From Klebsiella phage vB_KpM_FBKp24: DNA of 64,000 nt. The stretch's first letter is position 1. Every line of letters starts with the position of its first letter. Made by a program: the position numbers and the translations under genes. Of the stretch, positions 2,358 through 58,650 are shown piece after piece. The stretch lies in sequence record MW394391.1; one strand, written 5' to 3'. The notes beneath the pieces are model-generated. The model saw only the letters and a list, made by a program, of their open reading frames with translations, was not told where the DNA came from and searched no databases.

Positions 2358-2387
2358 ATAGAGAGGGGCCGAAAAGCCCCTCTCTAT
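2358..2387 (-). terminator. GC hairpin ATAGAGAGGGG-ccgaaaag-CCCCTCTCTAT, between tailspike B and tailspike A.
   Basis: Perfect 11-bp stem. It is followed on the minus strand by TTGTTTTCCTATGAC. Confidence 0.6.
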
Positions 2388-2469
2388 GATTATTGTTACA
2401 CACGTTATCACAAAGTTGAATTGTAATCAAAGCTTACAATTACCACAAATGTTTTCGCTTCCCTGTAAA

Positions 2470-4698
2470 TTAAATTAAGCTTTTCGCAATAACAGTAGGC
2501 GGCACATTAGCAATAGCTGCTGCAGTTACTGTCGCGGATGCGACGATATCGAGAATACCCGCGCCTGTTGTCGCATCAAACCTGACTACACGGTAAGTTC
2601 CGGTCGCGCCTGCGATGGAAATAAAAGCACCTTCGTAGAGTCCGTTTGGGTTTTGGAAAGTTACTGACCGACTACCACTGGTGGTGGTTACTGTACCGGA
2701 TATTGTATCTAACGTTCCCGAAAGTACAACTCTGTATTCGTTCCAGCGAGTCGCACTAGGCACCGTCGTTCGCACGATACTTCCCTGAATGTGGGTACCG
2801 CTGATAAGACCGGGGGCGCCAGTTAAGTCAGTTACCGTCTTATCTGGTCCGCGATAACCACCGTTATTGGTGCCAAAATAAATACCGCCATCCCCTACGT
2901 TGTTAGCGAAGAAGCTGTCAGGGTGAATAATATTCACGTTCACAAAACGCCCGTCGGTAGAAGTCCCAGTACGGTATTGATAAGGAGCAACGTTGTTAAC
3001 CATGTAGACAATTAAATCTGACATGTTAGCGCGAATCCAGAAGAAAGACCCTGCCGTAAAGCCAGAAAGTACGGATTTATTCCAATTACTTCCTCTATTG
3101 TTTGTCCAGCGCCAACGACCGGCTTTACTTGGAGTATAAGTGATTGTACTAGGGGTGTTATTCACCATTACAGCCCCGGACGAACCTTCGTCAAAATCAT
3201 TATTATCAAGAACAAAGATATTATCTACTTGTTGGAGATTGATCCAGTAACGCGCGTTGGTCGAACCTAATCGTTGATTTTTAAAGGTATTAGAACGAAC
3301 ATAAAGATTACTAATCCTTTGCCCTTCTCCACTAGTTACTTGGTTAATACCGCCGTAACAATTATCTGAAATATTATTTTCAAAATAAATATTATCATAG
3401 GTACAAGTACCTGTGTTCCAAGAACGAATGCGTAATGGACAGGTTTCAATATTACCTTCATTAGTGGAATAAATATTGAAAAACTGATTACCCTGAATAA
3501 CTATGTTTTTGATGTAAGCGCCGTTAGGGGAATTGTCGTCATTTGTCAAATAAACACCTGACTGTATCGAAGTATCGACCAAGTTATTTTTAATAATCAC
3601 ATTTTGCACGTACGTATACAACTTAAACGCGGCCTGTGTGTTTGAAACTTTGTTATCGCTGATCAGAGCATTGTTTACTGGATAATTAGGGTCGAAACTT
3701 CCGCATGAGATTGCGTCATCCCCCACTCGTTCCACTTTATTATTCTGTGCAGTGATGTCGGTTGTGCGATAAAAATGAATTCCATCAGTACCGGCCTTCA
3801 CCGTGTTACCGCCAATATGATCGTGAACGTAACAGTTACGTACAGTGACATTTTTAGAATAATCGAATTGAATACCGTAACCGATAGCATTGGCTTCGTC
3901 AACAAACTCAATCACACCATCGCCAGAGTTAGAAATATACAACGACTTAGGGCCAATTGTCCCAGTGTAACTATTGTAGTTAGGGCGGGTTATTTTAAAA
4001 TGACCAAAGTAGTGTCGGTACTTTGTTACGCTGACTGATTCCGAACCAATCCTAATTCCTTGTCCTAGATGGTTAATTCTGAACTCGGTCAGACTCATAC
4101 CGGCCCCTCTGAAAATGACTCCCTGAGTAGGGACTATGACTGGGGCGTCAAGACGATAGATACCTGGTTTTTGCTGGTAAATGACCTTACCGGAATTGAA
4201 AGCAGCAGTAACAGCGGAGCTACTATCAGTATTCCCGCTAGGGTCCGCACCATATTGTTCCAACGTCGCATATCCCAAAACATCCTCAAGATACCCTTTA
4301 TCTTGCAAAGGAATAATTTTAGTCCCGCCGACCTCACTAACGAGCGCAGCCGATGTTATCTTCCTACTTGTCGGTAATCTTACCTGATTATTGTCATATC
4401 CTAATACTGGGTTAGCAACGCCCGACACATTCTGATATTGCAACACCCACAGTTTTGCAACTGTTTCATAGACGAAGAAGACATCGCCCGACACAGTAGC
4501 ATCTAGTCCAGCGTCTACAGATAAGAAAGCGTTATCAAAGCCCAGAGTTTGGCGAAGATCGTTGATCTTAGTTGCTTTGGTAAATGCGACGCCTGCATCG
4601 GTCTTTGCGTTAATAGGGACGACGTCATTTTCTTTAATGACGCCTGCATCACCTAGTTCAGAAATTTTGATTCCAATGGAATCTGGCAATTTAGGCAT
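2470..4698 (-). CDS. Tailspike/depolymerase-like protein B (742 aa), beta-helix body.
   Basis: The N-terminus KISELGDAG...INDLRQTLGFDNAF...DVFFVYET matches the shared adaptor. The body is rich in N-, G- and V-containing repeats, typical of a right-handed beta-helix. A hairpin plus the TATGAT motif lies upstream. Confidence 0.75.
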   Translation of the reverse strand: MPKLPDSIGIKISELGDAGVIKENDVVPINAKTDAGVAFTKATKINDLRQTLGFDNAFLSVDAGLDATVSGDVFFVYETVAKLWVLQYQNVSGVANPVLGYDNNQVRLPTSRKITSAALVSEVGGTKIIPLQDKGYLEDVLGYATLEQYGADPSGNTDSSSAVTAAFNSGKVIYQQKPGIYRLDAPVIVPTQGVIFRGAGMSLTEFRINHLGQGIRIGSESVSVTKYRHYFGHFKITRPNYNSYTGTIGPKSLYISNSGDGVIEFVDEANAIGYGIQFDYSKNVTVRNCYVHDHIGGNTVKAGTDGIHFYRTTDITAQNNKVERVGDDAISCGSFDPNYPVNNALISDNKVSNTQAAFKLYTYVQNVIIKNNLVDTSIQSGVYLTNDDNSPNGAYIKNIVIQGNQFFNIYSTNEGNIETCPLRIRSWNTGTCTYDNIYFENNISDNCYGGINQVTSGEGQRISNLYVRSNTFKNQRLGSTNARYWINLQQVDNIFVLDNNDFDEGSSGAVMVNNTPSTITYTPSKAGRWRWTNNRGSNWNKSVLSGFTAGSFFWIRANMSDLIVYMVNNVAPYQYRTGTSTDGRFVNVNIIHPDSFFANNVGDGGIYFGTNNGGYRGPDKTVTDLTGAPGLISGTHIQGSIVRTTVPSATRWNEYRVVLSGTLDTISGTVTTTSGSRSVTFQNPNGLYEGAFISIAGATGTYRVVRFDATTGAGILDIVASATVTAAAIANVPPTVIAKSLI

Positions 4699-4724
4699 TT
4701 TTCCACCCTCAGGGTTAAAAGAAA

Positions 4725-4744
4725 GTTAATCATACGAAACAAAA
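4725..4744 (-). promoter_or_regulatory. Putative late-promoter element TTTTGTTTCGTATGATTAAC (minus strand) upstream of tailspike B.
   Basis: It abuts hairpin 4746-4769. TATG lies 36 nt before the ATG. Confidence 0.45.
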
Positions 4745-4745
4745 C

Positions 4746-4769
4746 TGAGAGGGGCGTAAACCCCTCTCA
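4746..4769. terminator. GC hairpin TGAGAGGGG-cgtaaa-CCCCTCTCA in the divergent spacer between tailspikes B and C. It belongs to the hairpin-promoter cassette and is not a terminator of either flanking gene.
   Basis: 9-bp stem. It is immediately followed on the minus strand by TTTTGTTTCGTATGATTAAC. Confidence 0.5.
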
Positions 4770-4861
4770 ACGTATGTTTAATAATGTTTCACTTGCAATG
4801 ACAGAACAGCGGTTGATAAATCGTGGGAGTATAACCAATCTTAATCACGGTCACGATAGTC

Positions 4862-4876
4862 AATGCTATGATACGA
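4862..4876 (+). promoter_or_regulatory. Putative late-promoter element AATGCTATGATACGA upstream of tailspike C.
   Basis: TATGAT lies 41 nt before the ATG. There is no adjacent hairpin, so this is a weaker match. Confidence 0.3.
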
Positions 4877-4907
4877 TTGACTATTAGAGACAATATAAGG
4901 TAAAATT

Positions 4908-7121
4908 ATGGCCAGTGAGATCTATGTAAAGCTCAGTGAAATGGATCGCCCATCAAAACCGGTAAACGATTCCGATCTGGTTTTTATTGCACAAAATGAA
5001 TCAGGGGTTGTTGAGTCTAAAGCGGCGGCCATCTCTGATCTGCGCGCGCTTCTTAATTTTGAAAATGCTTACACTACCACCACACTAGGTTTAGCCGATA
5101 CTGAAGCTAACCAAATCTTCTACGTTTTTGTCGATGCAACAAAAACGACAGTAAAATCTTATATTAATCGTAACGGCATCGCGGAGGCTATCCTTAACGC
5201 GGACGGCACTTTAAAAATCAATTACACTCTCGTCGGAATCGACGCTATTCAGAAAGAAATTAATTCCGTTTATTCCACGGGTGGGTCCAATAGCGTCGGT
5301 CATGTAAGAACAGAGATTGAGTCAAATTCAGCTAGTGTGGCAAAAACGCTGAACGGGCTCCCGGTTAACATTTGGGAATTTTCTAATTTAGTGACTAAAA
5401 AAGACAACCCGAATGATCCCTCTACTTGGGACTGGTCGCCAGCTGTAAGCGCAGCTATTGATAAGTGTATTTATCAAAAGCAAATTAATATCTCCAACGC
5501 ACAAAGATATTGTTCAGGTTGGCTCTTCTTCCCACCGGGAAAATATAGATTAGACAGTAAAATTGTCAAAGATTTAAGTTCTATTACGTACGAGACAGGT
5601 AAACCCCGTTTTAGGATTATGGGCCAAGGGGCTTACATTTCTTCTAATGTTAATAAGGATTATTTGTTAACGTTTACTGGTGGTAGATTGGAAATGGACG
5701 GAATAACGTTCATTAAAGAACCGGGTATTTTTGCTTACTACATTAAACTCGGAAGTGAAGTGACTGCTAACTCAATGGCCGTTGGCGGGAGATTCTCTAA
5801 TCTTAACTTCATGTCGCCCACTAAAGCGATAACCTTCGGTCAGTGTTACGATGCAGTATTTGATTGCATCTACATGACTGGGTTTGTTGCAGTTGACGAT
5901 AGCGATACAAATAACCCTGCGACGGGGATTCATATCTTACCTCAAGCCACGGACAACTCCAACAACATCGTGTTCATCAGACCACACATTGAAACGTCGT
6001 ACACTAAAAACTACATAGCTATTAAAGTAGATCCAACTTCTACCTCCAGTACACACCACAACATTAAATTTGAAGGCGGTCATATTGAGACGCACTTCTA
6101 CGGAGCGAAGTGGTTTAGTTTAGGCGGCGGTACTCAGTTTAATTTCGACACTGTAGTTTTTACAGACAACGGGTCAGGTGGTACGGATACTGCGGGCACT
6201 TACGAATTAGGGTACATCAACCAAGGGATTGTTAAATTTACCGGTTGTACTTTCCAAACACTAAGAAAATCTAGTGTTGCGTATGACAGTTCGATTCACA
6301 CTTCAATGATAAGGTTCGGATCTAGCACTAACACTGGTCGAATTTTCGACAGTTGCTATTTCTCATCGGCATTTTCCGAAGTCTCTGGTAACGGCACGAT
6401 CGCTCCGATTTTTGATGTCAGTGCAAGTACCCAGGGTAAAAGAGCGTACCAACTTATTAACTGCGCAATTAATAATTTTACCAGAAGAATATCAAGTGGT
6501 TTAATTCTTAATGATCTTAAAGTTGCGACAAGGAAATATATTGTCGATGTTGATAGTGACAACAATAGCGCCCTATCTATTTACTACACTAACACCGATG
6601 GATCTTTCAATCCAACTACTCCGATCCTTTCGGTGGCGCAAGATGGAACAATAAGTGGCTACCTCATTAAAACTACGGCTTCAATTTCAAGCGGAAATAT
6701 TCTCCAAATTGGGAATAACAATACTACTGCTGGCGATCGAAGACTGGATTTCTACCCGTACGGCAACACTACTTTAGGAGGTAGAATTTTACTTGGTAAC
6801 ACCGGACCGATGACTTTTACTAGTTATTTATCCGGTATGAACTTTGTTGCTAACGGAGGCGCTAGTCAGTTTAATTTCATGGGGTCAGTAGTACCGAATA
6901 GCAACGCGAACTATGACTTTGGTTCCGCAGCGCTTTCGTGGAAGAACGCTTACTTTACCGGGACTATAACTGTCAACGGTAATCCCGTAGGAGTTAAAGT
7001 AGCGGTACCTTCCTCGGCTACTTCGGCGGGTAGCGTTGGTCAATGGGCGGCTGATACAAATTATCTTTACGTTTGCATCGCCACAAATACTTGGGTGCGG
7101 TCAGCATTGACTACCTGGTAA
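4908..7121 (+). CDS. Tailspike/depolymerase-like protein C (737 aa).
   Basis: The N-terminus KLSEM...ISDLRALLNFENAY...IFYVFVDATKT is an adaptor variant. It has a beta-helix-like body with NN-rich repeats and an upstream TATGAT motif. Confidence 0.7.
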   Translation: MASEIYVKLSEMDRPSKPVNDSDLVFIAQNESGVVESKAAAISDLRALLNFENAYTTTTLGLADTEANQIFYVFVDATKTTVKSYINRNGIAEAILNADGTLKINYTLVGIDAIQKEINSVYSTGGSNSVGHVRTEIESNSASVAKTLNGLPVNIWEFSNLVTKKDNPNDPSTWDWSPAVSAAIDKCIYQKQINISNAQRYCSGWLFFPPGKYRLDSKIVKDLSSITYETGKPRFRIMGQGAYISSNVNKDYLLTFTGGRLEMDGITFIKEPGIFAYYIKLGSEVTANSMAVGGRFSNLNFMSPTKAITFGQCYDAVFDCIYMTGFVAVDDSDTNNPATGIHILPQATDNSNNIVFIRPHIETSYTKNYIAIKVDPTSTSSTHHNIKFEGGHIETHFYGAKWFSLGGGTQFNFDTVVFTDNGSGGTDTAGTYELGYINQGIVKFTGCTFQTLRKSSVAYDSSIHTSMIRFGSSTNTGRIFDSCYFSSAFSEVSGNGTIAPIFDVSASTQGKRAYQLINCAINNFTRRISSGLILNDLKVATRKYIVDVDSDNNSALSIYYTNTDGSFNPTTPILSVAQDGTISGYLIKTTASISSGNILQIGNNNTTAGDRRLDFYPYGNTTLGGRILLGNTGPMTFTSYLSGMNFVANGGASQFNFMGSVVPNSNANYDFGSAALSWKNAYFTGTITVNGNPVGVKVAVPSSATSAGSVGQWAADTNYLYVCIATNTWVRSALTTW

Positions 7122-7124
7122 CTC

Positions 7125-7154
7125 ATAGAGGAGGGCGAAATCGCCCTCCTCTAT
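7125..7154 (+). terminator. Hairpin ATAGAGGAGGGCGA-aa-TCGCCCTCCTCTAT after tailspike C.
   Basis: 14-bp stem followed by TTTGTTTCGTATGACC. Confidence 0.65.
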
Positions 7155-7170
7155 TTTGTTTCGTATGACC
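7155..7170 (+). promoter_or_regulatory. Putative late-promoter element TTTGTTTCGTATGACC upstream of tailspike D.
   Basis: It abuts hairpin 7125-7154. TATG lies 35 nt before the ATG. Confidence 0.45.
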
Positions 7171-7198
7171 ATTTTCAAATAATAACCGGAGCCAGATA

Positions 7199-9454
7199 AT
7201 GTCCGATATTTTTTCTCAAAAGATCTCTGAGTTACAGTCCAGTACAGGGCCGAGTGAAAACGCCTATTTCCCTCTTTCTGAAGCCAATAACGACTTCTCA
7301 GAGAAGGTGAGTATCACTACCTTAAGGGAAACTATTGGTTTTGAGAATGCTTTCCCTACCGTCGCTATTGCGTTACTGGCGACTAAAGAAAGCGACGTCT
7401 TCTTCGTTTATGAGGACGATAAAAAAGAAAACGTTTTGGGTTATGTCAATCAGGGTAACGGGAGTTATTCTGCCTTGATGACTGACAGTAACACTCAGCT
7501 GCGCTATGCTACAAGTAGCTTTGTTGTTAATAGTTTATTCTTTTTGCGGGGCGCGGAGAGTTTCGAAGAACTTAGAACAATTAAGCCATGGTACGAAGGA
7601 CAACGCATTAAACTTAAGAGTTACTACGTTAACGGTTTAACGGGTGGCGGTGAGTTTGTTGCGCGATTAACAGGCGGTGTAGATGACGGCGGTTTTATCG
7701 CGGCGGGAGAAGGGTATTATTGGGAACGTGCTGGCGATGAAATCTCACTTAACAATTACGGGGTCTATTATCAGGATATAAATGCAAACGGGAAAATTAA
7801 TTTCTCTAACGCCGTTCAATCTGCAATTAATAGGGCCAAAAATAAAAAGCTTCCGCTTATTACTAATTTCCCATCTGAAAACCATTACGTTAAAGGTGGG
7901 ATTTACCTCGAATCAGGTATTGATATTACAGGAATAAAATCGATCGAGGGGGCGTTACCCATTATCATCGATTCTTCCATTTTTACGGGTCTGAACGCTA
8001 TCGGTTACCCCGGTATAACATGGGTCCTGTTAAATATTAATGGCTCTTTAGGTACGGACGGTATGATATTCGGTACCAGTGTAGGTAATCAGACCCTTGA
8101 TACAATAGCGATAAGGGATCTTAATCCCAGATCAAAACCTTTAGGCGGGCAATTACACACTTTTTCTGGTACCACAATTAACGGTGCGCTTTGTGCTACC
8201 GGTTTTGATGGCCCTGGTGTTTATCTCTCAAACTGTTACGATTCTAATATTCAAGATATTCGGGCCATCGAATCAGGGAATATTTCTTGGTGGTCCATTT
8301 CGATAGATTCATATCCCAAAGACAGTACTTCTTCGCTGGACACCTCCAATCATTTAGTGATTGGGAGTATTGAACCTCACGATTGCCATGAACGAATTTT
8401 GAATGTCAACGCCTCCGCTTCCTCGGTCGACCATATACATGAAGAAGCGAGCTATGTAACGGACACAACTACTTGGGGTTCGGCTACGGTTTCTAGTAAC
8501 GGTTTTGGGTGGACGAACACGCTTCTGGCTGGTTGGTGTTCTCGCTTTGGTGTGGTAAGGGTTCTACCGAAGAGCACTAATACAGGAAAGCATGTAACGA
8601 CGGTAGTCTCAGATCAAATTTCTATCGATACTTTTCAGACAGAAGGGAACCTCGGCCTCCATTTCACTTATACAAACCCCGTGAAAGGTTCTTCGTACGG
8701 AACAATTGAAGTAGGTACCGATCTTTATATTACGACCAATGTTCCGGGTTCGATAGGTCATTGTTTAGTAAAAGGCGCTAATTCCGTCGTCACTCAGCTC
8801 AGTAAGAAACTTAATGTTAGATCAATGATGATCACGGGGTCTTCTTCATCACTTGTTGACTCTGGTGGCGTATACGGGAACTTAGAGGCTATTGTCGCAA
8901 CTATCGATAGCGGCGTAGTCAGTAAAGGTTCTATAACCACCTTAACGTCTACAGGAAGTACTTCCCTCTCTAACATCGGTATTGTTACTCTCACTTTAAA
9001 CGGGACACGGACAACGGTCAAAGATTGTTACATCAGTGGTGTTTCTAGTTTTTCTGGGGATGGAGTTGTATCAGGGACTACACTTGTTGGAGCAAGCAGT
9101 TTTTCTGGATCGTTTACTTGTTTCGGTATCAAAACAAACGCGAATTTATCTATCAGTAACACCTCTGCGCAGACATATAACTTCTCTTTACGTGATTCGT
9201 TTATTAATGGGCAACTTTCAATAACGAACTACGTTAAAGTGAACATCGACTTCGTCAGGGTCATTAATCTTTACATTTCCATTACTAGCGGATTCTTACT
9301 TCTTTCAAATATCCAAATGACCGGGTCATTAACGGGGAATGTAATAAGTTCAACCAACGTCCCGGCTTTGGGTTCTTCGACGACTGACCCTACTAATGGA
9401 AATAGTTACATTTTCCAATCTGGGGGTTGGAAAATGATAAATATAACTGCATAG
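7199..9454 (+). CDS. Tailspike/depolymerase-like protein D (751 aa).
   Basis: Adaptor sequence MSDIFSQKISEL...LRETIGFENAF...VFFVYED. It shares a further ~100-aa module with protein E (LRTIKPWYEGQRIKLKSYYVNGLTGGGEFVA). A hairpin plus TTTCGTATGACC sits 35 nt upstream. Confidence 0.75.
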   Translation: MSDIFSQKISELQSSTGPSENAYFPLSEANNDFSEKVSITTLRETIGFENAFPTVAIALLATKESDVFFVYEDDKKENVLGYVNQGNGSYSALMTDSNTQLRYATSSFVVNSLFFLRGAESFEELRTIKPWYEGQRIKLKSYYVNGLTGGGEFVARLTGGVDDGGFIAAGEGYYWERAGDEISLNNYGVYYQDINANGKINFSNAVQSAINRAKNKKLPLITNFPSENHYVKGGIYLESGIDITGIKSIEGALPIIIDSSIFTGLNAIGYPGITWVLLNINGSLGTDGMIFGTSVGNQTLDTIAIRDLNPRSKPLGGQLHTFSGTTINGALCATGFDGPGVYLSNCYDSNIQDIRAIESGNISWWSISIDSYPKDSTSSLDTSNHLVIGSIEPHDCHERILNVNASASSVDHIHEEASYVTDTTTWGSATVSSNGFGWTNTLLAGWCSRFGVVRVLPKSTNTGKHVTTVVSDQISIDTFQTEGNLGLHFTYTNPVKGSSYGTIEVGTDLYITTNVPGSIGHCLVKGANSVVTQLSKKLNVRSMMITGSSSSLVDSGGVYGNLEAIVATIDSGVVSKGSITTLTSTGSTSLSNIGIVTLTLNGTRTTVKDCYISGVSSFSGDGVVSGTTLVGASSFSGSFTCFGIKTNANLSISNTSAQTYNFSLRDSFINGQLSITNYVKVNIDFVRVINLYISITSGFLLLSNIQMTGSLTGNVISSTNVPALGSSTTDPTNGNSYIFQSGGWKMINITA

Positions 9455-9456
9455 TT

Positions 9457-9490
9457 AAAAACTCAGTCCTAAAAAGGACTGAGTTTTTTA
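9457..9490. terminator. Hairpin AAAAACTCAGTCCT-aaaa-AGGACTGAGTTTTTT after tailspike D.
   Basis: 10-bp stem flanked by an A tract and a T tract, giving rho-independent terminator geometry in both directions. Confidence 0.7.
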
Positions 9491-9500
9491 TATGACCACC
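9485..9500 (+). promoter_or_regulatory. Putative late-promoter element TTTTTTATATGACCACC upstream of tailspike E.
   Basis: It overlaps the T tract of hairpin 9457-9490. TATG lies 29 nt before the ATG. Confidence 0.4.
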
Positions 9501-9519
9501 TCCATTCAGGATTAAAGAC

Positions 9520-11559
9520 ATGTCTAATGAAACACAGAAAATTAGCGAGTTGAACCCTGCTACTACGCTGACTGAACACACTCTGTTCCCCGTGGTCTCT
9601 GAACAGACGGAGACCAGTAACACAGATATCTCGACACTGCGTTCAGTCTTGTTGTTCGACAAAGCTTTCAACTCAATCGCAGAAGGTACAGATGGAACGG
9701 AGAAAGGAGAGTCTTATTTTGTTTACACGGATGCAACCAAAACCGCGGTACAGGGTTACGTCAACCAAGGTGGGGGTTCTTACACGCCACTTGTAGATAT
9801 CAATGGCGTCGCAGTCCGGTATATCTCCGGGCAGACGCTACGAGGGTTAGATTATTTTACTAACGGCGTAGATTCCTTCGCTAAGTTACGGACACTATCG
9901 CCTCTATACGCTGGGCAACGCGTAAAGTTGAAAAGTTGGGTAGCGGGTGGAAAAACAGGTGGTGGGGAATTTATCGCCGGAATCGGATCGGCGACGGATG
10001 ACAACGGCACGATTGCCGCCGGGAATGGATTCTACTGGCAACGGATTATTTCCGATCGGTTGTCTTTTGAGGATTTCGGTGCGGTCGGGGATGGTGTACT
10101 GGACGATACCAGTAACATTCAAAAAGCGGTCAACTACTGTGCTAAGAACGGCATTGCACTAACGTGTTTAGGGAAAGTCTACGCAGTCAGTACCGTAAAT
10201 TTCCCAACCGATTTAGTGATCGATATGTGTAACGCGGTACTTTTGTCGTTACCCTCTGTTACGACGGGTTATACCTTAACAATCAGCGGTTATTTGTCTC
10301 CTGCGGCTAATCCAGGAAAATTTGATAATATTCGTGTTCAGCGTACCTTAATTAATACTCATCAGCCCGACACTAACAGCGTCGTAGACGGCGTGTCATT
10401 TGGAGTTGATGCGCACAATATTTCCTTCTATAATCTCAAGGTCTCTGGGTTTAGGGACGGAGTTTGTTTTAACGGGAAAAGTGCTTATCTCATTCGTTTA
10501 TACAGCCCGATCATTGGGCAGTGTTGGCGCCGAGGGATGGCCTTTTATGCGAATACTGATTCCAATGAAAACGTGACCATTTACGGCGGCGTGATTGCGG
10601 ATTGTTGTAATTTCACTTTCGACGGTACTGGGGTCTACTTATCAGGGAGTGCCTCAAGTATTGATGTCAGGTTCTTTGGGACCAGTTTTGATTATTGCGA
10701 CATCTCAGTTGATCTTTATCAATCTAACGTCGAGCTTCACGGTTGTCACTTGGAAAACAATAATAACAACCCCCATATTCGACTTTCGTACACCTCAACC
10801 AAAAACCAACCCTATCTGATCATGAAAGGGGGAACAATGGGAGGCGGACCGAACGCGAACTCGTGGAGCGGTATTCCGATAGAAAATAGTACGGGTCGTC
10901 CTTACCTCGTCTTCATTACCAACACTGGCGGTGCCCACGTTGACATTGATGGAACTGACACCAGTAAATACATGACAGGAGTCAGGAGAACTACCGAGAT
11001 CGTAGGTGTAGAGGGCGATAACTACCAGTTGATCGGGACCTTAAGGGTGAGGAACAAAATGACCTCTGGGAACATGGATAACGCCAGTCGCCCCATGCGA
11101 CCTTGTAGTGCCCTTAACGTGATTCTGATCAACCAATATCAAACTGCCGCATGGACACCGAGTTACACTAACGCTGACCTCACTTATACGATTGATACTA
11201 CGAATTACTCTAACCCTAATTCACCGCACTCACGAAAAATTACACAAGGAAGCGTACGTAATGTCTCTTACTGGCAGGACGTGACACTGCGCGGCGGAGA
11301 TATTTTCCACGCGGAGGCCGAAATCAAAATCACATCATTGACGGCTGGTTACGTCGCGCTTAGAGTGGATTTTTACGACTCTGCCGGGAACGTAATACAA
11401 TCGTCAATCAAATCCGTATCTGCGGTGACGGCTGATTGGAATAACGTGTGGGTCTGGTTACGCGCACCAAACGGTACAGTCAAGGCAAAAGTTCAAGAGT
11501 ACTTAAACGGTTTTGTCGGAACGGCGTATTTCACCAATGAACACGTTTGGATTTCTTAA
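9520..11559 (+). CDS. Tailspike/depolymerase-like protein E (679 aa), pectate-lyase-superfamily-like body.
   Basis: MSNETQKISEL adaptor. FEDFGAVGDGVLDDTSNIQKAVNYCAKNG is a classic pectate_lyase_3 / tailspike N-cap motif. A hairpin plus TATATGACC lies upstream. Confidence 0.8.
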   Translation: MSNETQKISELNPATTLTEHTLFPVVSEQTETSNTDISTLRSVLLFDKAFNSIAEGTDGTEKGESYFVYTDATKTAVQGYVNQGGGSYTPLVDINGVAVRYISGQTLRGLDYFTNGVDSFAKLRTLSPLYAGQRVKLKSWVAGGKTGGGEFIAGIGSATDDNGTIAAGNGFYWQRIISDRLSFEDFGAVGDGVLDDTSNIQKAVNYCAKNGIALTCLGKVYAVSTVNFPTDLVIDMCNAVLLSLPSVTTGYTLTISGYLSPAANPGKFDNIRVQRTLINTHQPDTNSVVDGVSFGVDAHNISFYNLKVSGFRDGVCFNGKSAYLIRLYSPIIGQCWRRGMAFYANTDSNENVTIYGGVIADCCNFTFDGTGVYLSGSASSIDVRFFGTSFDYCDISVDLYQSNVELHGCHLENNNNNPHIRLSYTSTKNQPYLIMKGGTMGGGPNANSWSGIPIENSTGRPYLVFITNTGGAHVDIDGTDTSKYMTGVRRTTEIVGVEGDNYQLIGTLRVRNKMTSGNMDNASRPMRPCSALNVILINQYQTAAWTPSYTNADLTYTIDTTNYSNPNSPHSRKITQGSVRNVSYWQDVTLRGGDIFHAEAEIKITSLTAGYVALRVDFYDSAGNVIQSSIKSVSAVTADWNNVWVWLRAPNGTVKAKVQEYLNGFVGTAYFTNEHVWIS

Positions 11560-11572
11560 GAAGGAACTCACT

Positions 11573-11794
11573 ATGTTTCAAGTAGGCGACACCGTTCGCA
11601 TCCTTTCTTGTCAAACTCGAGAAGACTTAGTCGGGAAAGAAACGACCATCAGTGCACTGGACGCTAAACTGGAAGATTTGGCTTGGGCAGATATCTACGG
11701 AATGGATCAATATATTTCGGTGGTCATCGATACCGATGCACGATTTATTGCGGCTCAACTGGAACTCGTAGCCAGTGACATTGAAGGCTCTTAA
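11573..11794 (+). CDS. Small hypothetical protein (73 aa) between tailspikes E and F.
   Basis: The ATG at 11573 is preceded by AAGAAGGAACTCACT, which serves as an RBS. The ORF ends just before the 11801 hairpin. The track's start at 11513 overlaps the end of gene E. Confidence 0.35.
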   Translation: MFQVGDTVRILSCQTREDLVGKETTISALDAKLEDLAWADIYGMDQYISVVIDTDARFIAAQLELVASDIEGS

Positions 11795-11800
11795 GCTATA

Positions 11801-11832
11801 GGCAATGAGGGGACCTAGGTCCCCTCATTGCC
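11801..11832 (+). terminator. Hairpin GGCAATGAGGGGACC-ta-GGTCCCCTCATTGCC after tailspike E and the small ORF.
   Basis: 15-bp perfect stem followed by TTGTTTCGTATGACC. Confidence 0.65.
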
Positions 11833-11847
11833 TTGTTTCGTATGACC
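11832..11847 (+). promoter_or_regulatory. Putative late-promoter element CTTGTTTCGTATGACC upstream of tailspike F.
   Basis: Identical 12-mer to the tailspike-D element. It abuts hairpin 11801-11832. TATG lies 33 nt before the ATG. Confidence 0.45.
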
Positions 11848-11873
11848 GGTTAGCTTTCTTCAGGAAAACAAAT

Positions 11874-13868: not shown

Positions 13869-13879
13869 TTGAGGTTTAA

Positions 13880-15541
13880 ATGAACTATTATTACATTGAT
13901 TCTTCCGCTACAGTTAACGGCGTTGGGACAAAAGGTAACCCCTTTAATTCGATTCAGTCAGCCATTGACGCCAACTTAACTCATCCTCTAACACTATACC
14001 TTAAAGCAGGTCAAACCTACGAACTAGCGTATTATAATCGTACCACTGCCAGTTTCTTTAACAATAAAACAGGCGTCCAGTCCGTCATTACTCGATACGG
14101 TACTGGTGCCAAGCCAATTCTCACCAGTAATAACGATACAATTATCATTGATGCGTACGCGTGCCAGATAAAATTTGAGAATATTCGCATTTCCCCAAAA
14201 CCAGGGTCAGAAAGAACCGCCATCTATCTTAACCTGATCCCGATAGGCGATAGTGCCAATAACAACATTTGTAACTTAACGCTAAACAAGGTTGATTTTA
14301 TTGGCACCCCTGAATCAATAGGGGGGATGAACGGGATTAACCGCGTGTTCTGTTTAAACAGTTTGGTCGATTATGCCGGTCTCAGTAATATTGCGCATAA
14401 ACTCTTAATCAGTAACTGTACATTTGACAACGTTAACGCTGGCGTTCAGTTGAGAGGTAACCCTGATCTCTCAGACAAAACGACCTATCACGGTGACCAG
14501 AAGAAAAGTTATGGTTTTAGAGTGATTAATTGCTCGTTTACGAATATCATTAACTCGGCGGTGTTCATCGGGTGGGCGGCAAGTAAAAATCAATCGAGAG
14601 ATGTCATTGGTGATGATATGGCGACAGGTGTAGACGGTTTGTACTATTCCAGTTACCGTTACAACGTCTACAATACATCAACGGGTGCGTCTCAAGCAGA
14701 CGTCCCAGTCTGGTTCTCTGGAACGCGTTATCTGACATTACAGAATTTCGAAATTCATGGCGCCGGCCCGGCTTACCCCGACCGTCAAACCATTGACTTT
14801 GATTATCATTGTCACTATTGCGTGGCGCGTTACGGGTACACCTCAAACAACGCACGTGGTTCAATGATTATCCAAGGACCTTTCAGTAACAGCTGGTACA
14901 GTTCTAAAGGATACACACCATTGTCCAATGATGCGTATACTTTGTACTATACGCTTGGTTTTGGGTCGATTGGCAACGTCATTGAATACGTTATTTCTTT
15001 CAACGACGGGGTAGGGAGAACGACCAGTACTGCTGATAAATATTGGCAGAAAACTTCTGCGTTCCGATACGTTTATGATAACGTAGTGCGTAACTGTGTC
15101 TTTATTGATACCGTGACCACGGCGAACGATAACGTGATTGCCATTAACCCACAGACAGACGACAGTTTAACTGCGCTGAGCCTGACTTTGGACAGTAACA
15201 TTTTCTACTATGCTAACAAGACCGCCACGGAATTAGTCACTCCTGCTTCGATGACTAACTTCCCGACCATGATGTCTAAATTCAAATTGAAAAATAATAT
15301 TTTCTTTTCTGAAAAATGGGCAGGTGCAACGCCGACTTCAACGGGACTGATCGAAGAAGGGAATCTCTTTACTAACCCTGCTTTTTTACAAGGGTTGTCG
15401 AACAGTTCTTTTGCGGGCTTGAAAGAAGCGTTGTTGGCTATCAAATTGAAAATGACTAGTCCTTGTATTGGGAGTGGCTCATCAAACAATAACCCAGACT
15501 TTATCGGTAAAGTTGGGAACAACATCGGATCAATTCAATAA
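13880..15541 (+). CDS. Beta-helix (pectin-lyase-fold-like) protein with no adaptor domain (553 aa). Possibly a free or piggy-backed depolymerase.
   Basis: The N-terminus YYIDSSATVNGVGTKGNPFNSIQSAIDA...LYLKAGQTYEL is typical of right-handed beta-helix proteins. It starts 12 nt after gene F, so it is probably co-transcribed. A bidirectional terminator lies downstream. Confidence 0.55.
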   Translation: MNYYYIDSSATVNGVGTKGNPFNSIQSAIDANLTHPLTLYLKAGQTYELAYYNRTTASFFNNKTGVQSVITRYGTGAKPILTSNNDTIIIDAYACQIKFENIRISPKPGSERTAIYLNLIPIGDSANNNICNLTLNKVDFIGTPESIGGMNGINRVFCLNSLVDYAGLSNIAHKLLISNCTFDNVNAGVQLRGNPDLSDKTTYHGDQKKSYGFRVINCSFTNIINSAVFIGWAASKNQSRDVIGDDMATGVDGLYYSSYRYNVYNTSTGASQADVPVWFSGTRYLTLQNFEIHGAGPAYPDRQTIDFDYHCHYCVARYGYTSNNARGSMIIQGPFSNSWYSSKGYTPLSNDAYTLYYTLGFGSIGNVIEYVISFNDGVGRTTSTADKYWQKTSAFRYVYDNVVRNCVFIDTVTTANDNVIAINPQTDDSLTALSLTLDSNIFYYANKTATELVTPASMTNFPTMMSKFKLKNNIFFSEKWAGATPTSTGLIEEGNLFTNPAFLQGLSNSSFAGLKEALLAIKLKMTSPCIGSGSSNNNPDFIGKVGNNIGSIQ

Positions 15542-15551
15542 CGCACCAAAC

Positions 15552-15583
15552 ACAGACAGAGGGGCATGAGCCCCTCTGTCTGT
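15552..15583. terminator. Bidirectional terminator ACAGACAGAGGGG-catgag-CCCCTCTGTCTGT between convergent genes.
   Basis: 13-bp stem between the plus-strand 553-aa gene and the minus-strand 203-aa gene. T tracts follow on both strands. Confidence 0.7.
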
Positions 15584-15592
15584 TTATATCTT

Positions 15593-16596: not shown

Positions 16597-16659
16597 TTTT
16601 CCTCCAAATTGAAGCAAAAAAAAAACAGTTTACGGATCCTTTTCCCTAGACCCGAAGGT

Positions 16660-17184
16660 CTAGGAATTGTTGATATCAAGCCACAAAAGAAAACGTTTGA
16701 TTTTTTTATCAGCGTTATGATCAAGCGGGTAATCGTCCTTGTAGGTATCGCTGAGTCTAACCTCGAAGAAATCAGGGTCTCTACCTAGCGGATAAAGGAA
16801 ATGTAAAACATACCGCTGTTTGCCATAAGCATCAAGAAACGTCCAGAGCGCAAATCGTTGGAAAGGGTATTCAGTCACCGTCAATTGTAATTTATCAAGT
16901 AGGCGATAGAGTTCCTTAATCCCAATATCTAAGGCTTCGATGGAGATTACTTGAATGGGGACTTCTAATTGAGACGAAAACTTAAACCCTCTGGTTCGAT
17001 ATTCTTTAATCGGCATGTTTAAATAATCTTTGAGTAATTTCCTGGCGTGTCTCTTATACCAGATATCAGGATGCCACTGACTTGGATCACTCATGAGTTT
17101 ACCGAATTCAAGGTGTTCTATTTCATAAGCCGCGAGTTTTTCTACTGCGATAAAAAACTCTTTCTTGCTGACACTGAGTCGCAT
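16660..17184 (-). CDS. Hypothetical protein (174 aa).
   Basis: ORF with an AAGGAGAG RBS. Confidence 0.5.
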   Translation of the reverse strand: MRLSVSKKEFFIAVEKLAAYEIEHLEFGKLMSDPSQWHPDIWYKRHARKLLKDYLNMPIKEYRTRGFKFSSQLEVPIQVISIEALDIGIKELYRLLDKLQLTVTEYPFQRFALWTFLDAYGKQRYVLHFLYPLGRDPDFFEVRLSDTYKDDYPLDHNADKKIKRFLLWLDINNS

Positions 17185-17207: not shown

Positions 17208-17231
17208 AGGAGAGGAGCCAATGCCCCTCTC
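17208..17231 (-). terminator. Imperfect hairpin GAGAGGAGC-caat-GCCCCTCTC.
   Basis: One mismatch in the stem. It lies between the 186-aa and 174-aa minus-strand genes. Confidence 0.4.
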
Positions 17232-17820: not shown

Positions 17821-17844
17821 AAAAGCGGGGAAATCCCCGCTTTT
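17821..17844 (-). terminator. Hairpin AAAAGCGGGG-aaat-CCCCGCTTTT, with a stem sequence different from the main hairpin family.
   Basis: It follows the 153-aa GC-rich gene. On the minus strand it is followed by TTTTTTCTTTT. Confidence 0.6.
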
Positions 17845-19175: not shown

Positions 19176-19199
19176 AGAGGGAAAGTTTTTCTTTCCCTT
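19176..19199 (-). terminator. Hairpin GGGAAAG-ttttt-CTTTCCC.
   Basis: It lies between the 243-aa and 216-aa minus-strand genes. Confidence 0.4.
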
Positions 19200-20052: not shown

Positions 20053-20079
20053 AGAGAGAGGGGTAAAACCCCTCTCTCC
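20053..20079 (-). terminator. Hairpin AGAGAGAGGGG-taaaa-CCCCTCTCTC.
   Basis: It lies downstream of the minus-strand block 20086-20974. Confidence 0.6.
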
Positions 20080-21042: not shown

Positions 21043-21050
21043 GATAAAAT

Positions 21051-21078
21051 AAAAAGAGGAGCAAATGCTCCTCTTTTT
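21051..21078 (-). terminator. Hairpin AAAAAGAGGAGC-aaat-GCTCCTCTTTTT at the end of the long minus-strand operon 31227 to 21080.
   Basis: 12-bp stem with an A tract and a T tract. Confidence 0.65.
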
Positions 21079-21079
21079 A

Positions 21080-21826
21080 TTACCATTTAGAGACAAGACC
21101 CGTTTTACCAGAAATAAACGGAGTACGATCCATCTGACGAATAGCATCAACCGTGGCTTTGAAACTCGACTCCACGGAGACCAAACTTTGGTCATTGGCC
21201 ATACTGCGAATAATCGCTGGTTGTACCGGGACAATCAGTGCCGACTCGCAAGACGGTGACATGTATTTGTTTGCGCAAGACAAACCGGGTTCGTTTACGA
21301 GATCCCAGGTAATAATGTTATCGACGTATTTACGAACCTTACCGCCAACCACTCTGTCGGTCGCCATACTGCGAATACTGAACGCCAGATTCTCGTCTGG
21401 GTTAGACATGATTTTCTCAAAATCTTCACGTCTGGCTCCCGTAGAACAAATCTCACCCATGATGGCGCAAATGCGCTGACCGTTAGGCAGAACGAAATTC
21501 GGCACAACCCAAACCTTGCGGATATGAAATGCCCAGTTACGTTCATCAATGGTGTGGATACGTTGAATGAATTTACGATAGTCGGCGTAATCGTATTCTT
21601 TGGGGTGACCCCATTCGCCGCGTAAATACCCTTCTCTCACGCGTTTCTGGAAAAGACCATTCTCCGCTAATATACGCTCAACACGTTGCTGGTCATATAC
21701 CGCACCAATACTGTTGTCGAACTCTAACGCCCCTAAAATAACTTCAAGGTAGTTGTTGTCCAGACGTTTAATATTCCCTACTCGGTTTACACCTTTCAGT
21801 GCTGTTACCTCAAATGACATCCCCAT
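21080..21826 (-). CDS. Hypothetical protein (248 aa), last gene of the RNAP-containing operon.
   Basis: ORF. A 3-nt spacer separates it from the upstream gene. Confidence 0.55.
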   Translation of the reverse strand: MGMSFEVTALKGVNRVGNIKRLDNNYLEVILGALEFDNSIGAVYDQQRVERILAENGLFQKRVREGYLRGEWGHPKEYDYADYRKFIQRIHTIDERNWAFHIRKVWVVPNFVLPNGQRICAIMGEICSTGARREDFEKIMSNPDENLAFSIRSMATDRVVGGKVRKYVDNIITWDLVNEPGLSCANKYMSPSCESALIVPVQPAIIRSMANDQSLVSVESSFKATVDAIRQMDRTPFISGKTGLVSKW

Positions 21827-25064: not shown

Positions 25065-25091
25065 ACGAGGGGAGTACGTTTCTCCCCTCGT
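25065..25091 (-). terminator. Hairpin ACGAGGGGAG-tacgttt-CTCCCCTCGT inside the operon, between the RNAP beta-like gene and the 63-aa gene.
   Basis: 10-bp stem. The palindrome CAAAGCGCTTTG lies adjacent at 25039-25050. It may be an attenuator or processing site rather than a full terminator. Confidence 0.4.
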
Positions 25092-37886: not shown

Positions 37887-37907
37887 AAGGGAGGGTCATC
37901 CTCCCTT
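37887..37907 (+). terminator. Hairpin AAGGGAGG-gtcat-CCTCCCTT followed by TTTCTTTTTC, after the 2201-aa gene.
   Basis: 8-bp stem with a U tract. The downstream gene starts at 37933. Confidence 0.55.
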
Positions 37908-40085: not shown

Positions 40086-40120
40086 AAAAGAGAGAGAGGG
40101 ATTTACCCTCTCTCTCTTTT
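40086..40120. terminator. Bidirectional terminator AAAAGAGAGAGAGGG-attta-CCCTCTCTCTCTTTT.
   Basis: 15-bp stem between convergent genes, with an A9 tract upstream. Confidence 0.7.
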
Positions 40121-40463: not shown

Positions 40464-40518
40464 AGGTTGTTCCTTTTTCTTTTGCGTCTACAAAAATAAA
40501 AAAGACTGTGGAAATAGA

Positions 40519-40542
40519 ATAGAGAGCGCGTGCGCTCTCTAT
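40519..40542 (-). terminator. Hairpin ATAGAGAGCGC-gt-GCGCTCTCTAT.
   Basis: 11-bp stem between the 355-aa and 114-aa minus-strand genes. Confidence 0.5.
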
Positions 40543-40546
40543 TCCC

Positions 40547-41898: not shown

Positions 41899-41937
41899 AG
41901 CGGGTACGCTCCAAAAAAAAATAGATTAAGGTGCATA

Positions 41938-41969
41938 AAGAAGAACGGTGTCTTTACACCGTTCTTCTT
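41938..41969. terminator. Hairpin AAGAAGAACGGTGT-cttt-ACACCGTTCTTCTT.
   Basis: 14-bp stem with T and A tracts, lying after the 251-aa gene. Confidence 0.6.
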
Positions 41970-41979
41970 TTAGCTTTTA

Positions 41980-43916: not shown

Positions 43917-43920
43917 TAAC

Positions 43921-43952
43921 AAACAGAGGGAAGCGTTTGCTTCCCTCTGTTT
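43921..43952. terminator. Bidirectional terminator AAACAGAGGGAAGC-gttt-GCTTCCCTCTGTTT.
   Basis: Between convergent genes. Confidence 0.7.
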
Positions 43953-43955
43953 GTG

Positions 43956-48890: not shown

Positions 48891-48924
48891 AGAGAATGAG
48901 AGAGGTTTCCCTCTCTCATTCTCT
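48891..48924. terminator. Bidirectional terminator AGAGAATGAGAGAGG-ttt-CCCTCTCTCATTCTCT.
   Basis: Between convergent genes. Confidence 0.7.
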
Positions 48925-53349: not shown

Positions 53350-53373
53350 AAAAAAAAGAAAGACAACAAGTAC

Positions 53374-53404
53374 TCCCCTTCTCCGCTAAAGCGGAGAAGG
53401 GGAG
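53374..53404. terminator. Bidirectional terminator CTCCCCTTCTCCGC-taaa-GCGGAGAAGGGGAG.
   Basis: An A9 tract lies upstream. It sits between convergent genes. Confidence 0.7.
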
Positions 53405-54028: not shown

Positions 54029-54029
54029 T

Positions 54030-54984: not shown

Positions 54985-55076
54985 TTATGACTCCTGTGTC
55001 AGTGGTCTTTGTTCAATAAGGTGATATATGCACAAAAGAGACTGGAAACGACTTCCAGTCTTTCTTCGTTATTAGA

Positions 55077-57548: not shown

Positions 57549-57626
57549 TTTTATCCCTTGTTTCGCCGGAATTATTTGTCTATTGGAATAGGCCGGAAAG
57601 TGAAAAAATAAAAGGAGAACACTTTT

Positions 57627-58616
57627 GTGAATACCGATGACATTGTTGAACGGACGTACGGAATTGTTGCTGAAAACAAAGTTTTAGGTCAAAATAATAT
57701 TTTGGTATGGCCACACCAAAAGACACCGTGGATGCAGGGTGACGTACAAAGCCAAATGCAAAAGGTGACGGTGAAAACCGTTGACGGCAACGGAAAGAAG
57801 GTGGAAGGCACGGCGGTGACGAGTACTGCTGTTGAGGCACGATGGCGCCCGACTGACAGCAACTGGAACACAGCGCCTGACGTTCAGCGTGGTGAGGTCG
57901 TTGAGCTTATTCGTTACGCGGACATGAATACCTACTTCTGGCGCGAACGAGGAGACGGTTCTGTAGCCCGGCGATTAGAAACTAAACGTCTTTTAGTTTC
58001 TGCTAATCAAACTGCCGGCGAACCTAACCCTGATACCCATTACATGATCGAAATCTCAGGTCATACCGGTGCTATCAATATCTCAACGTCCAAAGCTAAC
58101 GGTGAAGTAAGTAGTTATCACATCACGTTGAATGGGAAAGGTGGCGCAATTAGCCTTGGTGATTCCGACGGGCAAGAAATATTTCTTGAGACGTCAACGA
58201 AAACCATTCGCGCCAGAAACTCCTCAGGTACATTAGTAGAAATAAATGATAAAGACTTAGGACTCTACTGCTTGGAGAATTTAGTAGCAGCAGGAAAAGA
58301 AAACATTATCATGCAAGCTAAAAACGTTACGGTGCAGGCCGGTGAAACCCTCAGAATGGATGCGGGGAAAACTATGAGCTTGAGCGCGGGTGAGCGCCAC
58401 GATACTACTGCGCCCATCATTGCGTTGAACGGTGCCATTCAACTTAACGGACCAATTTCGCAGGTATCCACTGACACCAACTATGACGCGACGTTACAAG
58501 GGACATTACGCGTAGTAACGGATGTTATTGGTGGTAATGTGAGTCTGGTTAATCACCCTCACAGCGGTGTGCAAAAAGGTAATGACAATACCGGTAAACC
58601 TGTTGTCACTGGGTAA
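57627..58616 (+). CDS. Putative tail central spike / beta-helical puncturing protein (329 aa), GTG start.
   Basis: Repetitive beta-strand-like segments. The C-terminal VSLVNHPHSGV has an H-x-H motif like the iron-binding apex of phage spike proteins. It is adjacent to the tail-fibre genes. GTG at 57627 has AAGGAG 9 nt upstream. Confidence 0.45.
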   Translation: MNTDDIVERTYGIVAENKVLGQNNILVWPHQKTPWMQGDVQSQMQKVTVKTVDGNGKKVEGTAVTSTAVEARWRPTDSNWNTAPDVQRGEVVELIRYADMNTYFWRERGDGSVARRLETKRLLVSANQTAGEPNPDTHYMIEISGHTGAINISTSKANGEVSSYHITLNGKGGAISLGDSDGQEIFLETSTKTIRARNSSGTLVEINDKDLGLYCLENLVAAGKENIIMQAKNVTVQAGETLRMDAGKTMSLSAGERHDTTAPIIALNGAIQLNGPISQVSTDTNYDATLQGTLRVVTDVIGGNVSLVNHPHSGVQKGNDNTGKPVVTG

Positions 58617-58622
58617 CAAAAC

Positions 58623-58650
58623 AAACAGGGAGGCAAACGCCTCCCTGTTT
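58623..58650. terminator. Bidirectional terminator AAACAGGGAGGC-aaac-GCCTCCCTGTTT.
   Basis: Between the convergent spike-like gene and the 176-aa gene. Confidence 0.7.

Follow-up and report, generated by a model that had tools for sequence, protein, structure and literature searches.

Do the spacers of a jumbo phage carry hairpins that share the sequence of their stems as well as their shape and, if so, what do such hairpins do? We addressed this question in a window of 64,000 nucleotides (nt) of Klebsiella phage vB_KpM_FBKp24 (MW394391.1), in which an earlier note had listed 15 intergenic hairpins as bearers of one common stem core, with different loops. We found that the hairpins are a loose sequence family with a shared vocabulary of GA-rich and CT-rich stem words and not the bearers of a single core, and we consider it probable (about 0.75) that they are mostly bidirectional, factor-independent terminators of the intrinsic type, or 3'-end hairpins, at which transcription units end. 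The stem rule extends across a virus family, and the order of the two arms depends on the clade.

A shared stem vocabulary in the spacers

Over a 10-kb segment, the window matches Klebsiella phage vB_KpM_Centimanus (genome of 299,730 bp) at 98.1% identity and a group of Klebsiella and Serratia jumbo phages at about 77%. The Centimanus gene content includes a nuclear shell protein, the tubulin PhuZ, several split RNA polymerase (RNAP) beta-type subunits and a ribonuclease; because of the near-identity, the shell protein, PhuZ and the split subunits, the window phage is, judged by gene content, a chimallivirus that forms a nucleus and relies on multisubunit polymerases of its own for transcription. 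Genome-wide tests were run on the whole Centimanus genome as a stand-in for the window phage. Hairpins were counted as perfect stems (for Centimanus, at least 9 base pairs (bp) with a loop of 3-8 nt) and called purine-first when the 5' arm was at least 75% purine; since the 5' arm of a palindrome is alike in composition whichever strand is read, this label is valid for both directions of transcription. Coding and intergenic hairpins were told apart by manual comparison with the Centimanus annotation. Stop-to-stop open frames were dropped as a coding test after misclassifying 24 intergenic hairpins, and a permissive scan allowing mismatches was discarded, its 384 structures being mostly spurious and in coding regions.

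All 15 hairpins of the earlier list are real and stable inverted repeats where they had been placed, by sequence and by RNA folding, with fold energies from -15 to -37 kcal/mol and z-scores between -2.2 and -8.2. The perfect-stem census finds 22 intergenic hairpins in the window (Table 1), 17 of them purine-first and two pyrimidine-first; five purine-first members (11800, 17821, 19178, 41937 and 55039) are absent from that list. The notion of one conserved core does not survive, as RGAGAGGGG matches both arms of only two hairpins, 2358 and 20054, and the listed hairpin at 53374 has its arms in the order opposite to the rest. Looser words are widespread among the 15 listed sites, with GAGAGG in six and GAGG in 13. 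A fixed-motif description was rejected as well: a rigid mirrored pattern of the phiKZ type catches only 2 sites, and it was replaced by arm composition and word statistics. None of the curated RNA families matches the window (Rfam 15 covariance models at the gathering score).

In Centimanus we observe 111 perfect hairpins, against 5-9 in shuffled genomes. By annotation 99 of these are intergenic and 12 lie within genes, the latter number being at chance level. The intergenic set consists of 65 purine-first, 8 pyrimidine-first and 26 mixed hairpins, where about 5 would be expected in each extreme class if purines and pyrimidines were equally likely, and the eight pyrimidine-first hairpins use the same stem vocabulary. 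Over all intergenic hairpins the 5' arm holds G and C in a ratio of 337:144. From the loop outward, the arm begins with C or G (the closing pair), G is the main base at positions 2-5, positions 6-8 hold A or G, and A prevails further out. The loop is 4 nt long in 57 of the 99, with varied sequences.

The stems are not fully described by this profile. Under a model that keeps the positional profile, 4.4 of the 65 purine-first arms should contain GAGAGG, and 21 do (z = 8.5); GAGAG reaches z = 9 and AGAGG z = 6.7, and GGGG and AAGG are depleted. Words in which G and A alternate are thus genuinely favoured, beyond composition and beyond the gradient from A to G. Were base composition sufficient, as the earlier note allowed, the core would be no more frequent in spacers than expected from it. 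This expectation fails, as GAGAGG and its complement together number 58 in the spacers of Centimanus, where composition predicts 8.1, and 12 in those of the window, where it predicts 2.4, their density being 8-11 times that of coding sequence, and the core words collectively are 6-11 times denser in spacers than in genes. Scrambles of equal composition (GGGAAG and GAAGGG) display no spacer enrichment. In this looser form, the shared primary sequence that the earlier note had seen in the stems stands.

Alike stems at many sites could also suggest a single small palindromic element, mobile or duplicating, whose copies were dispersed through the spacers in the manner of repetitive extragenic palindromic (REP) sequences or miniature inverted-repeat transposable elements (MITEs), and a sequence, TGTTTCGTATG, does stand in three exact copies beside hairpins of the tail-fibre module. 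However, the 60-nt flanks of the 99 Centimanus hairpins are unrelated, with only four short matches of 15-20 nt, which rules out recent spread of a mobile element; stem length, register and loop vary, and the tail-fibre cassettes differ in their stems while their TATGA box is conserved. Upon comparing phage MJ359 (77% identical DNA) with Centimanus, 11 hairpins are positionally orthologous with alignable flanks, and each of these stems differs by 1-4 substitutions, all of them fully compensated, so that the structure must be under selection. The spread of one element, which the earlier note had proposed as a cause of the likeness, is therefore extremely improbable, given unrelated flanks, sites orthologous at 77% identity and stems that have drifted by compensated changes. 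The hairpins resemble REP sequences, bacterial interspersed mosaic elements or MITEs in being many short intergenic palindromes of similar sequence, and differ from them in lacking a conserved body or flanks, in their variable stems and orthologous sites, and in a distribution that tracks the ends of transcription units. The stem vocabulary would rather be lineage-specific, with hairpins that evolve in place.

Between the window and Centimanus, three orthologous hairpins (40517, 41937 and 58619) have identical stems and loops that are exact reverse complements of each other. Such loop flips suggest small inversions inside the palindromes, with frequent exchange from arm to arm in the DNA, and this exchange may keep the arms perfectly matched.

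A probable mirror image of the published terminator motif

Terminators with a conserved sequence are already known in this virus family, from phiKZ and 201phi2-1. In phiKZ, ONT-cappable-seq mapped 133 RNA 3' ends, and 61 intrinsic terminators were found to have a common stem-loop motif, 5'-BCCYCCCCHWWDGGGRRGGBYTTATKYYGT-3' (Putzeys et al. 2024, PMC10914365). In 201phi2-1, 132 3' ends were mapped, the main motif is similar to that of phiKZ, eight terminators were functional in uninfected Pseudomonas chlororaphis, and downstream expression was lost in terminator-trap assays (PMC11512511). A search of the window for the phiKZ motif, with up to 3 mismatches allowed, gave no match.

We compared capsid-centred regions of about 42 kb each from ten chimalliviruses, with T4 and E. 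coli as controls. Stems with one GA-only and one CT-only strand were found throughout the ten phages, and the census of the phiKZ region reproduces the published motif. The order of the arms, expressed as the (G-C)/(G+C) index of the 5' arm, stands at +0.56 for the window and +0.45 for Centimanus, lies between +0.24 and +0.28 in MJ359, Totoro, PhiEaH1, PCH45 and RP12, and is negative in EarlPhillipIV (-0.25), SPN3US (-0.31), 201phi2-1 (-0.38) and phiKZ (-0.71). It is near zero in the controls (-0.18 to -0.02), with 5'-arm G:C counts of 32:39 in E. coli and 30:33 in T4 and similar results by a loop-proximal measure. This absence of arm bias agrees with the earlier note that a shared stem sequence is unusual for terminators. 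The polarity follows the capsid phylogeny, and one duplex word (GGAGAGGG/CCCTCTCC) is closed by the loop at opposite ends in the two clade groups. These GA/CT-segregated stems in opposite arm order, with clade-specific polarity, are the new observation, and we found no paper on Centimanus or on terminator stems with segregated purines and pyrimidines.

The window hairpins are most likely a mirror-image variant of the published phiKZ motif and not a new kind of element. Both occur in Chimalliviridae, are intergenic and have primary sequence common to dozens of terminators per genome; the phiKZ stem likewise has about 8 G/C-rich bp, one GA-only and one CT-only strand (GGAGAGGG and CCCTCTCC) and a loop usually of 4 nt. 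The differences are that phiKZ is pyrimidine-first (CCCTCTCC, loop, GGAGAGGG) whereas the window phage is purine-first, that the G/C block is at the stem base in phiKZ and beside the loop in the window phage, that phiKZ hairpins stand in a CATAA...TTATG frame whereas those of the window phage mostly have A-tract and T-tract flanks (AAACAAA...TTTGTTT), and that the window-phage stems are longer, at 9-16 bp. Motifs A and B of 201phi2-1 are similar in being conserved stem-loop sequences at mapped 3' ends, with longer stems where the two motifs combine, but they are pyrimidine-first, and loops of the UUCG type dominate, whereas the loops of the window phage and Centimanus are varied. A validated terminator of 201phi2-1 (transcription termination site 132,419) lies 8 nt beyond the post-capsid hairpin that our census located, and this hairpin is the positional counterpart of the post-capsid hairpins in Centimanus and MJ359; the position is equivalent, the in vivo function being that of 201phi2-1. 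That RNA 3' ends form at the hairpins of the window would follow by analogy with the experiments in phiKZ and 201phi2-1. As the 201phi2-1 terminators are active in the uninfected host, terminators of this family can work with the host polymerase, independently of any phage factor.

Probable transcription-unit ends and the neighbouring TATG boxes

Bidirectional intrinsic terminators of bacteria are symmetric hairpins with an A-tract upstream and a U-tract downstream, located between convergent genes. The phage hairpins are alike in their palindromic stems, their A/T flanks and their concentration at convergent junctions, but bacterial and T4 stems have G and C mixed on both arms, unlike the G-biased 5' arm and preferred words seen here, and the phage uses the symmetric form between same-strand genes too. 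In Centimanus a hairpin is found at 68% of the convergent junctions, at 25% of the tandem ones and at 6% of the divergent ones, and in the window all six convergent junctions have one; the distribution is therefore as expected for terminators. The flanks are about 60% A upstream and 45-55% T downstream, at least 5 T are found in the 8 nt past the stem in 44 of 79 purine-first cases in gene direction (mean 4.7), and the 3' arm of purine-first hairpins itself ends in U/C. Perfect palindromes, free of G-U pairs and bulges, make up 81 of the 93 strong intergenic Centimanus hairpins. Together, junctions, flanks and perfect palindromes agree with the earlier description of terminator-like elements, mostly bidirectional and flanked by an A tract and a T tract.

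We propose that a palindrome with an A-run on one side and a T-run on the other would give the same RNA from either strand, and so would stop transcription from both directions. One arm holds G and A alone, preferably in GAGAG alternation, and is rich in G beside the loop, often with a C-G closing pair, and the opposite arm holds only C and T; the RNA would consist of a purine 5' arm, a loop usually of 4 nt and a pyrimidine 3' arm entering a U-rich tail. The sole clearly one-directional member among the window hairpins is 17210..17231(-). On the minus strand at 17190-17231, the tail of its 3' arm, CUCUCCUU, is able to pair alternatively with AAGGAGAG, the Shine-Dalgarno (SD) sequence 5 nt ahead of the ATG of gene 16660..17184(-), and the two mutually exclusive hairpins predicted there could couple termination to the translation of the next gene.

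Several points weigh against the reading as terminators. A strong U-run is absent in about 44% of the purine-first hairpins, and the pyrimidine-first ones are weaker in their U-tract, with none in the stem base. Perfect palindromes occur even between same-strand genes, where an RNA function in one direction would tolerate G-U pairs. Hairpin 4746 stands at a divergent junction with nothing obvious to terminate. Termination in this phage is argued from its relatives, and this reading gives no reason for the strand-segregated stems. A strand test of G-U against A-C pairs was unusable because 81 of the 93 strong hairpins are perfect palindromes; the 12 imperfect ones split 5 versus 4 and leave it no power.

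The hairpins, a large minority of which do not have a good U-tract, could instead be RNA-stability or processing elements, with polymerases reading through and 3' ends then arising by exonuclease trimming or adjacent endonuclease cleavage. The phage encodes a ribonuclease, and the 3'-end mapping in relatives cannot alone separate termination from processing. We regard this as clearly improbable, however, since the majority have U-rich tails, the 201phi2-1 terminator traps record a loss of downstream expression, which goes beyond mere 3'-end formation, and hairpins cover the convergent junctions almost completely, as would suit a need for polymerases to be stopped there.

Many of the hairpins also have a TATG close by. 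The late promoter of phiKZ is 5'-TATG-3' with G at +1, a sequence that is necessary but not sufficient (PMC4666361), and its non-template single strand is bound by a pocket in the beta-lobe of gp123 (PMC12809450). Upon examining the five tail-fibre/depolymerase junctions of the window, we observe one layout, namely a hairpin, a T-rich run, TATGA(C/T), about 30 nt, an SD sequence and ATG. TATGA is invariant over the five while the stems differ, and exact TGTTTCGTATG is found at three. These junctions resemble cassettes of terminator and promoter that move together with the individual receptor-binding genes. The TATGAC after the hairpin is conserved between the late regions of MJ359 and Centimanus, and by analogy with phiKZ the TATG(AC) that follows a late-region hairpin is probably the promoter of the next gene for the non-virion RNA polymerase (nvRNAP). 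A late-gene unit would then run from stop codon to hairpin, U-rich run, TATGAC, about 30 nt, SD and ATG. As a separate observation, positions 1-15600 of the window hold a block of five or six large genes (550-750 amino acids (aa)) of the tail-fibre/depolymerase type that is not collinear with Centimanus, while the remainder is about 98% identical; the receptor-binding module therefore appears to have been swapped.

The association of hairpin and TATG is modest over the Centimanus genome, with a downstream-side TATG in 17 of 68 tandem cases against a background of 6.5%. TATG as a pure promoter signal was rejected: it is also enriched upstream of hairpins and at convergent junctions and is therefore not promoter-only. 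In phiKZ, 201phi2-1, RP12 and Goslar, CATAA...TTATG frames hairpins on both sides (Table 1), and in the published phiKZ motif the late-promoter core TATG is what makes up the TTATK tail. The paper on the phiKZ terminators never mentions TATG and draws no link to the promoter core (PMC10914365). TATG may thus act in termination too, for example as a pause signal.

Could the palindromes act mainly at the level of DNA or in promoters, as cruciforms or single-stranded hairpins by which nvRNAP would more easily locate or open the adjacent TATG start site, or in replication or recombination, and not in ending RNA synthesis? The 81 of 93 perfect palindromes would fit such a role, as would the flipped loops of three orthologues between 98%-identical genomes, which point to arm-to-arm exchange in DNA, a TATG within about 12 nt of many hairpins, the divergent junction at 4746 with TATG on both sides, and the insufficiency of TATG alone for phiKZ late promoters (PMC4666361). 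Yet hairpins occupy only 6% of the divergent junctions, where promoters are concentrated, as opposed to 68% of the convergent ones, and only about 25% of hairpins in this phage have a downstream-side TATG. Additionally, swaps with the phiKZ promoter P119L put the main extra determinant downstream of TATG and not upstream (PMC4666361), and the RNA 3' ends that were mapped in relatives fall at such hairpins. A main role in DNA or in promoters is for these reasons very unlikely, and termination remains our preferred reading.

Table 1. Hairpins and TATG boxes of the window, and framed hairpins of related phages (region coordinates where stated). Hairpins are written as arm-loop-arm; folds are for RNA.
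Position	Strand	Feature	Context	Fold and remarks
2358..2387		purine-first palindrome ATAGAGAGGGGC-cgaaaa-GCCCCTCTCTAT	3' of gene 2470..4698(-)	-26 kcal/mol, z -5.6; identical copy at Centimanus 299201-299230
4746..4769		purine-first TGAGAGGGG-cgtaaa-CCCCTCTCA	divergent junction, outward TATG on both sides: 4773(+), 4731-4734(-)	-23.6 kcal/mol
7125..7154		purine-first ATAGAGGAGGGCG-aaat-CGCCCTCCTCTAT	between tandem (+) tail-fibre genes	-27.5 kcal/mol
9457..9488		mixed composition AAAAACTCAGTCCT-aaaa-AGGACTGAGTTTTT	tandem (+) genes	layout shared, stem vocabulary not
11800..11833		purine-rich AGGCAATGAGGGGAC-ctag-GTCCCCTCATTGCCT		-33 kcal/mol
15552..15583		purine-first ACAGACAGAGGGGC-atga-GCCCCTCTGTCTGT	convergent junction	-29 kcal/mol, z -7.7
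16645..16664		short, mixed CCTAGACC-cgaa-GGTCTAGG	tandem (-) genes	outside the shared type
17210..17231	-	imperfect GAGAGGGGC-auug-GCUCCUCUC, then CUUUUUUAUU on minus strand		-17.6 kcal/mol
17821..17844		purine-first AAAAGCGGGG-aaat-CCCCGCTTTT		
19178..19198		purine-only, 8 bp AGGGAAAG-ttttt-CTTTCCCT		
20054..20078		purine-first GAGAGAGGGGT-aaa-ACCCCTCTCTC, then TATG on minus strand		-24.7 kcal/mol
21048..21081		purine-first AATAAAAAGAGGAGC-aaat-GCTCCTCTTTTTATT		-21.3 kcal/mol
25065..25091		purine-first ACGAGGGGAG-tacgttt-CTCCCCTCGT	3' of 1492-aa RNAP subunit gene (-)	-20.6 kcal/mol
37887..37907		purine-only AAGGGAGG-gtcat-CCTCCCTT, then TTCTTTTTCT	3' of 2201-aa gene (+)	-15.4 kcal/mol
40086..40120		purine-only AAAAGAGAGAGAGGG-attta-CCCTCTCTCTCTTTT	convergent junction	-27.7 kcal/mol; one compensated pair vs Centimanus
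40517..40544		purine-first GAATAGAGAGCG-cgtg-CGCTCTCTATTC		-24.9 kcal/mol; loop reverse-complemented vs Centimanus (32662)
41937..41970		purine-rich AAAGAAGAACGGTGT-cttt-ACACCGTTCTTCTTT		loop reverse-complemented vs Centimanus (34082)
43919..43954		purine-first ACAAACAGAGGGAAGC-gttt-GCTTCCCTCTGTTTGT	convergent junction	-29.9 kcal/mol
48891..48924		purine-first AGAGAATGAGAGAGG-tttc-CCTCTCTCATTCTCT	convergent junction, CCATA...TTTATGG frame	-31.7 kcal/mol, z -7.7
53373..53404		pyrimidine-first (phiKZ-like polarity) CTCCCCTTCTCCGC-taaa-GCGGAGAAGGGGAG	convergent junction	-37.4 kcal/mol
55039..55061		purine-rich AGACTGGAA-acgac-TTCCAGTCT	tandem (-) genes	
58619..58654		purine-first AAACAAACAGGGAGGC-aaac-GCCTCCCTGTTTGTTT	convergent junction	-32.4 kcal/mol, z -8.2; loop reverse-complemented vs Centimanus (50763)
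2343..2348	-	TATGAC	9 nt past hairpin 2358 on minus strand	
4729..4734	-	TATGAT	past hairpin 4746 on minus strand, upstream of gene 2470..4698(-)	
7164..7169	+	TATGAC	9 nt past hairpin 7125, about 30 nt ahead of gene 7199	candidate nvRNAP late-promoter core
9491..9496	+	TATGAC	2 nt past hairpin 9457	candidate late-promoter core
11841..11846	+	TATGAC	7 nt past hairpin 11800	candidate late-promoter core
phiKZ 28118-28139, 34415-34435 (region)		framed hairpins	convergent junctions	
201phi2-1 14730-14749, 30055-30076 (region)		framed hairpins	convergent junctions	
RP12 17199, 27309, 37046 (region)		framed hairpins	convergent junctions	
Goslar 10258, 37582 (region)		framed hairpins		

Strand-segregated arms and what may read them

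That the base of the stem is A-rich is explained by the A and T tracts of a bidirectional terminator. For the segregation of purines and pyrimidines between the arms, three causes were tried and rejected. Stability is insufficient, as pair-flipped stems are only 0.3-0.5 kcal/mol weaker. An origin of the purine arm as a Shine-Dalgarno sequence does not fit, the purine arm being the one farther from the downstream start and the rule holding at convergent junctions. Avoidance of restriction sites or palindromes is too mild in Centimanus, where the mean observed/expected ratio of six-mer palindromes is 0.89 and neither CCGG nor GCGC is avoided. Separately, the six-base palindromes AGGCCT and GCATGC are absent from the whole Centimanus genome, and CTAG stands at 0.56 of expectation, though it is nonetheless among the commoner terminator loops, with 4 occurrences. 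In a pair-flip simulation, flipped stems were somewhat more prone to have their 5' arm trapped in competing structures ahead of the synthesis of the 3' arm (0.52 versus 0.44 for purine-first and 0.56 versus 0.36 for pyrimidine-first hairpins).

The earlier note had also raised recognition by a sequence-specific factor. In this account structure alone would be insufficient, and the GA/CT stem would be a code read by the phage RNAP or by a phage hairpin-binding protein acting in termination, antitermination, 3'-end protection or as a nuclease. The preference for GAGAG/GAGAGG beyond composition, the clade-specific polarity in step with the capsid phylogeny and the lack of such bias where the host RNAP is used, in T4 and E. 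coli, are what such a code would predict. We still judge it unlikely, as core, register and stem length are all unfixed, 26 of 99 hairpins within one genome are of mixed composition and 8 of reversed polarity, orthologous stems drift freely via compensated changes, and 201phi2-1 terminators of this type are active in the uninfected host, where phage proteins are absent. A more specific proposal, which we hold to be quite unlikely, is that the transcription machinery of chimalliviruses itself reads the GA/CT stem, together with the CATAA...TTATG frame that is seen in many clades, as a code for termination. The pocket in the beta-lobe of nvRNAP would catch the TATG just past the hairpin and cause an elongation pause that replaces a long U-tract, and the reader of the arms would be either the polymerase or a co-evolving factor that binds the hairpin, the order of the arms having flipped between clades. 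This proposal would fit the TATG frames on both sides of hairpins at convergent junctions of phiKZ, 201phi2-1 and RP12, where promoters are unneeded.

As a side observation, the deposited Centimanus annotation places a tRNA-Stop with anticodon tta at 121400-121483, inside a tRNA cluster, which is a possible suppressor tRNA candidate.

Termination by the non-canonical multisubunit RNAPs of jumbo phages is, to our knowledge, essentially unstudied, with motif descriptions only, for phiKZ and 201phi2-1. Across the family, GA/CT stems with segregated strands are the rule, their polarity goes with the clade, and the Klebsiella clade has the mirror-image form. The natural swap variants (purine-first, pyrimidine-first and pair-flipped) can tell a reading of sequence from a reading of structure by nvRNAP. 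If ordinary biophysics alone were behind the segregation, the finding would still be a tidy extension of published work. Overall, the hairpins are a set of compact bidirectional terminators for Enterobacteriaceae, should the preferred reading hold, and the stem rule offers a cheap annotation of transcription units for the many unannotated chimallivirus genomes.

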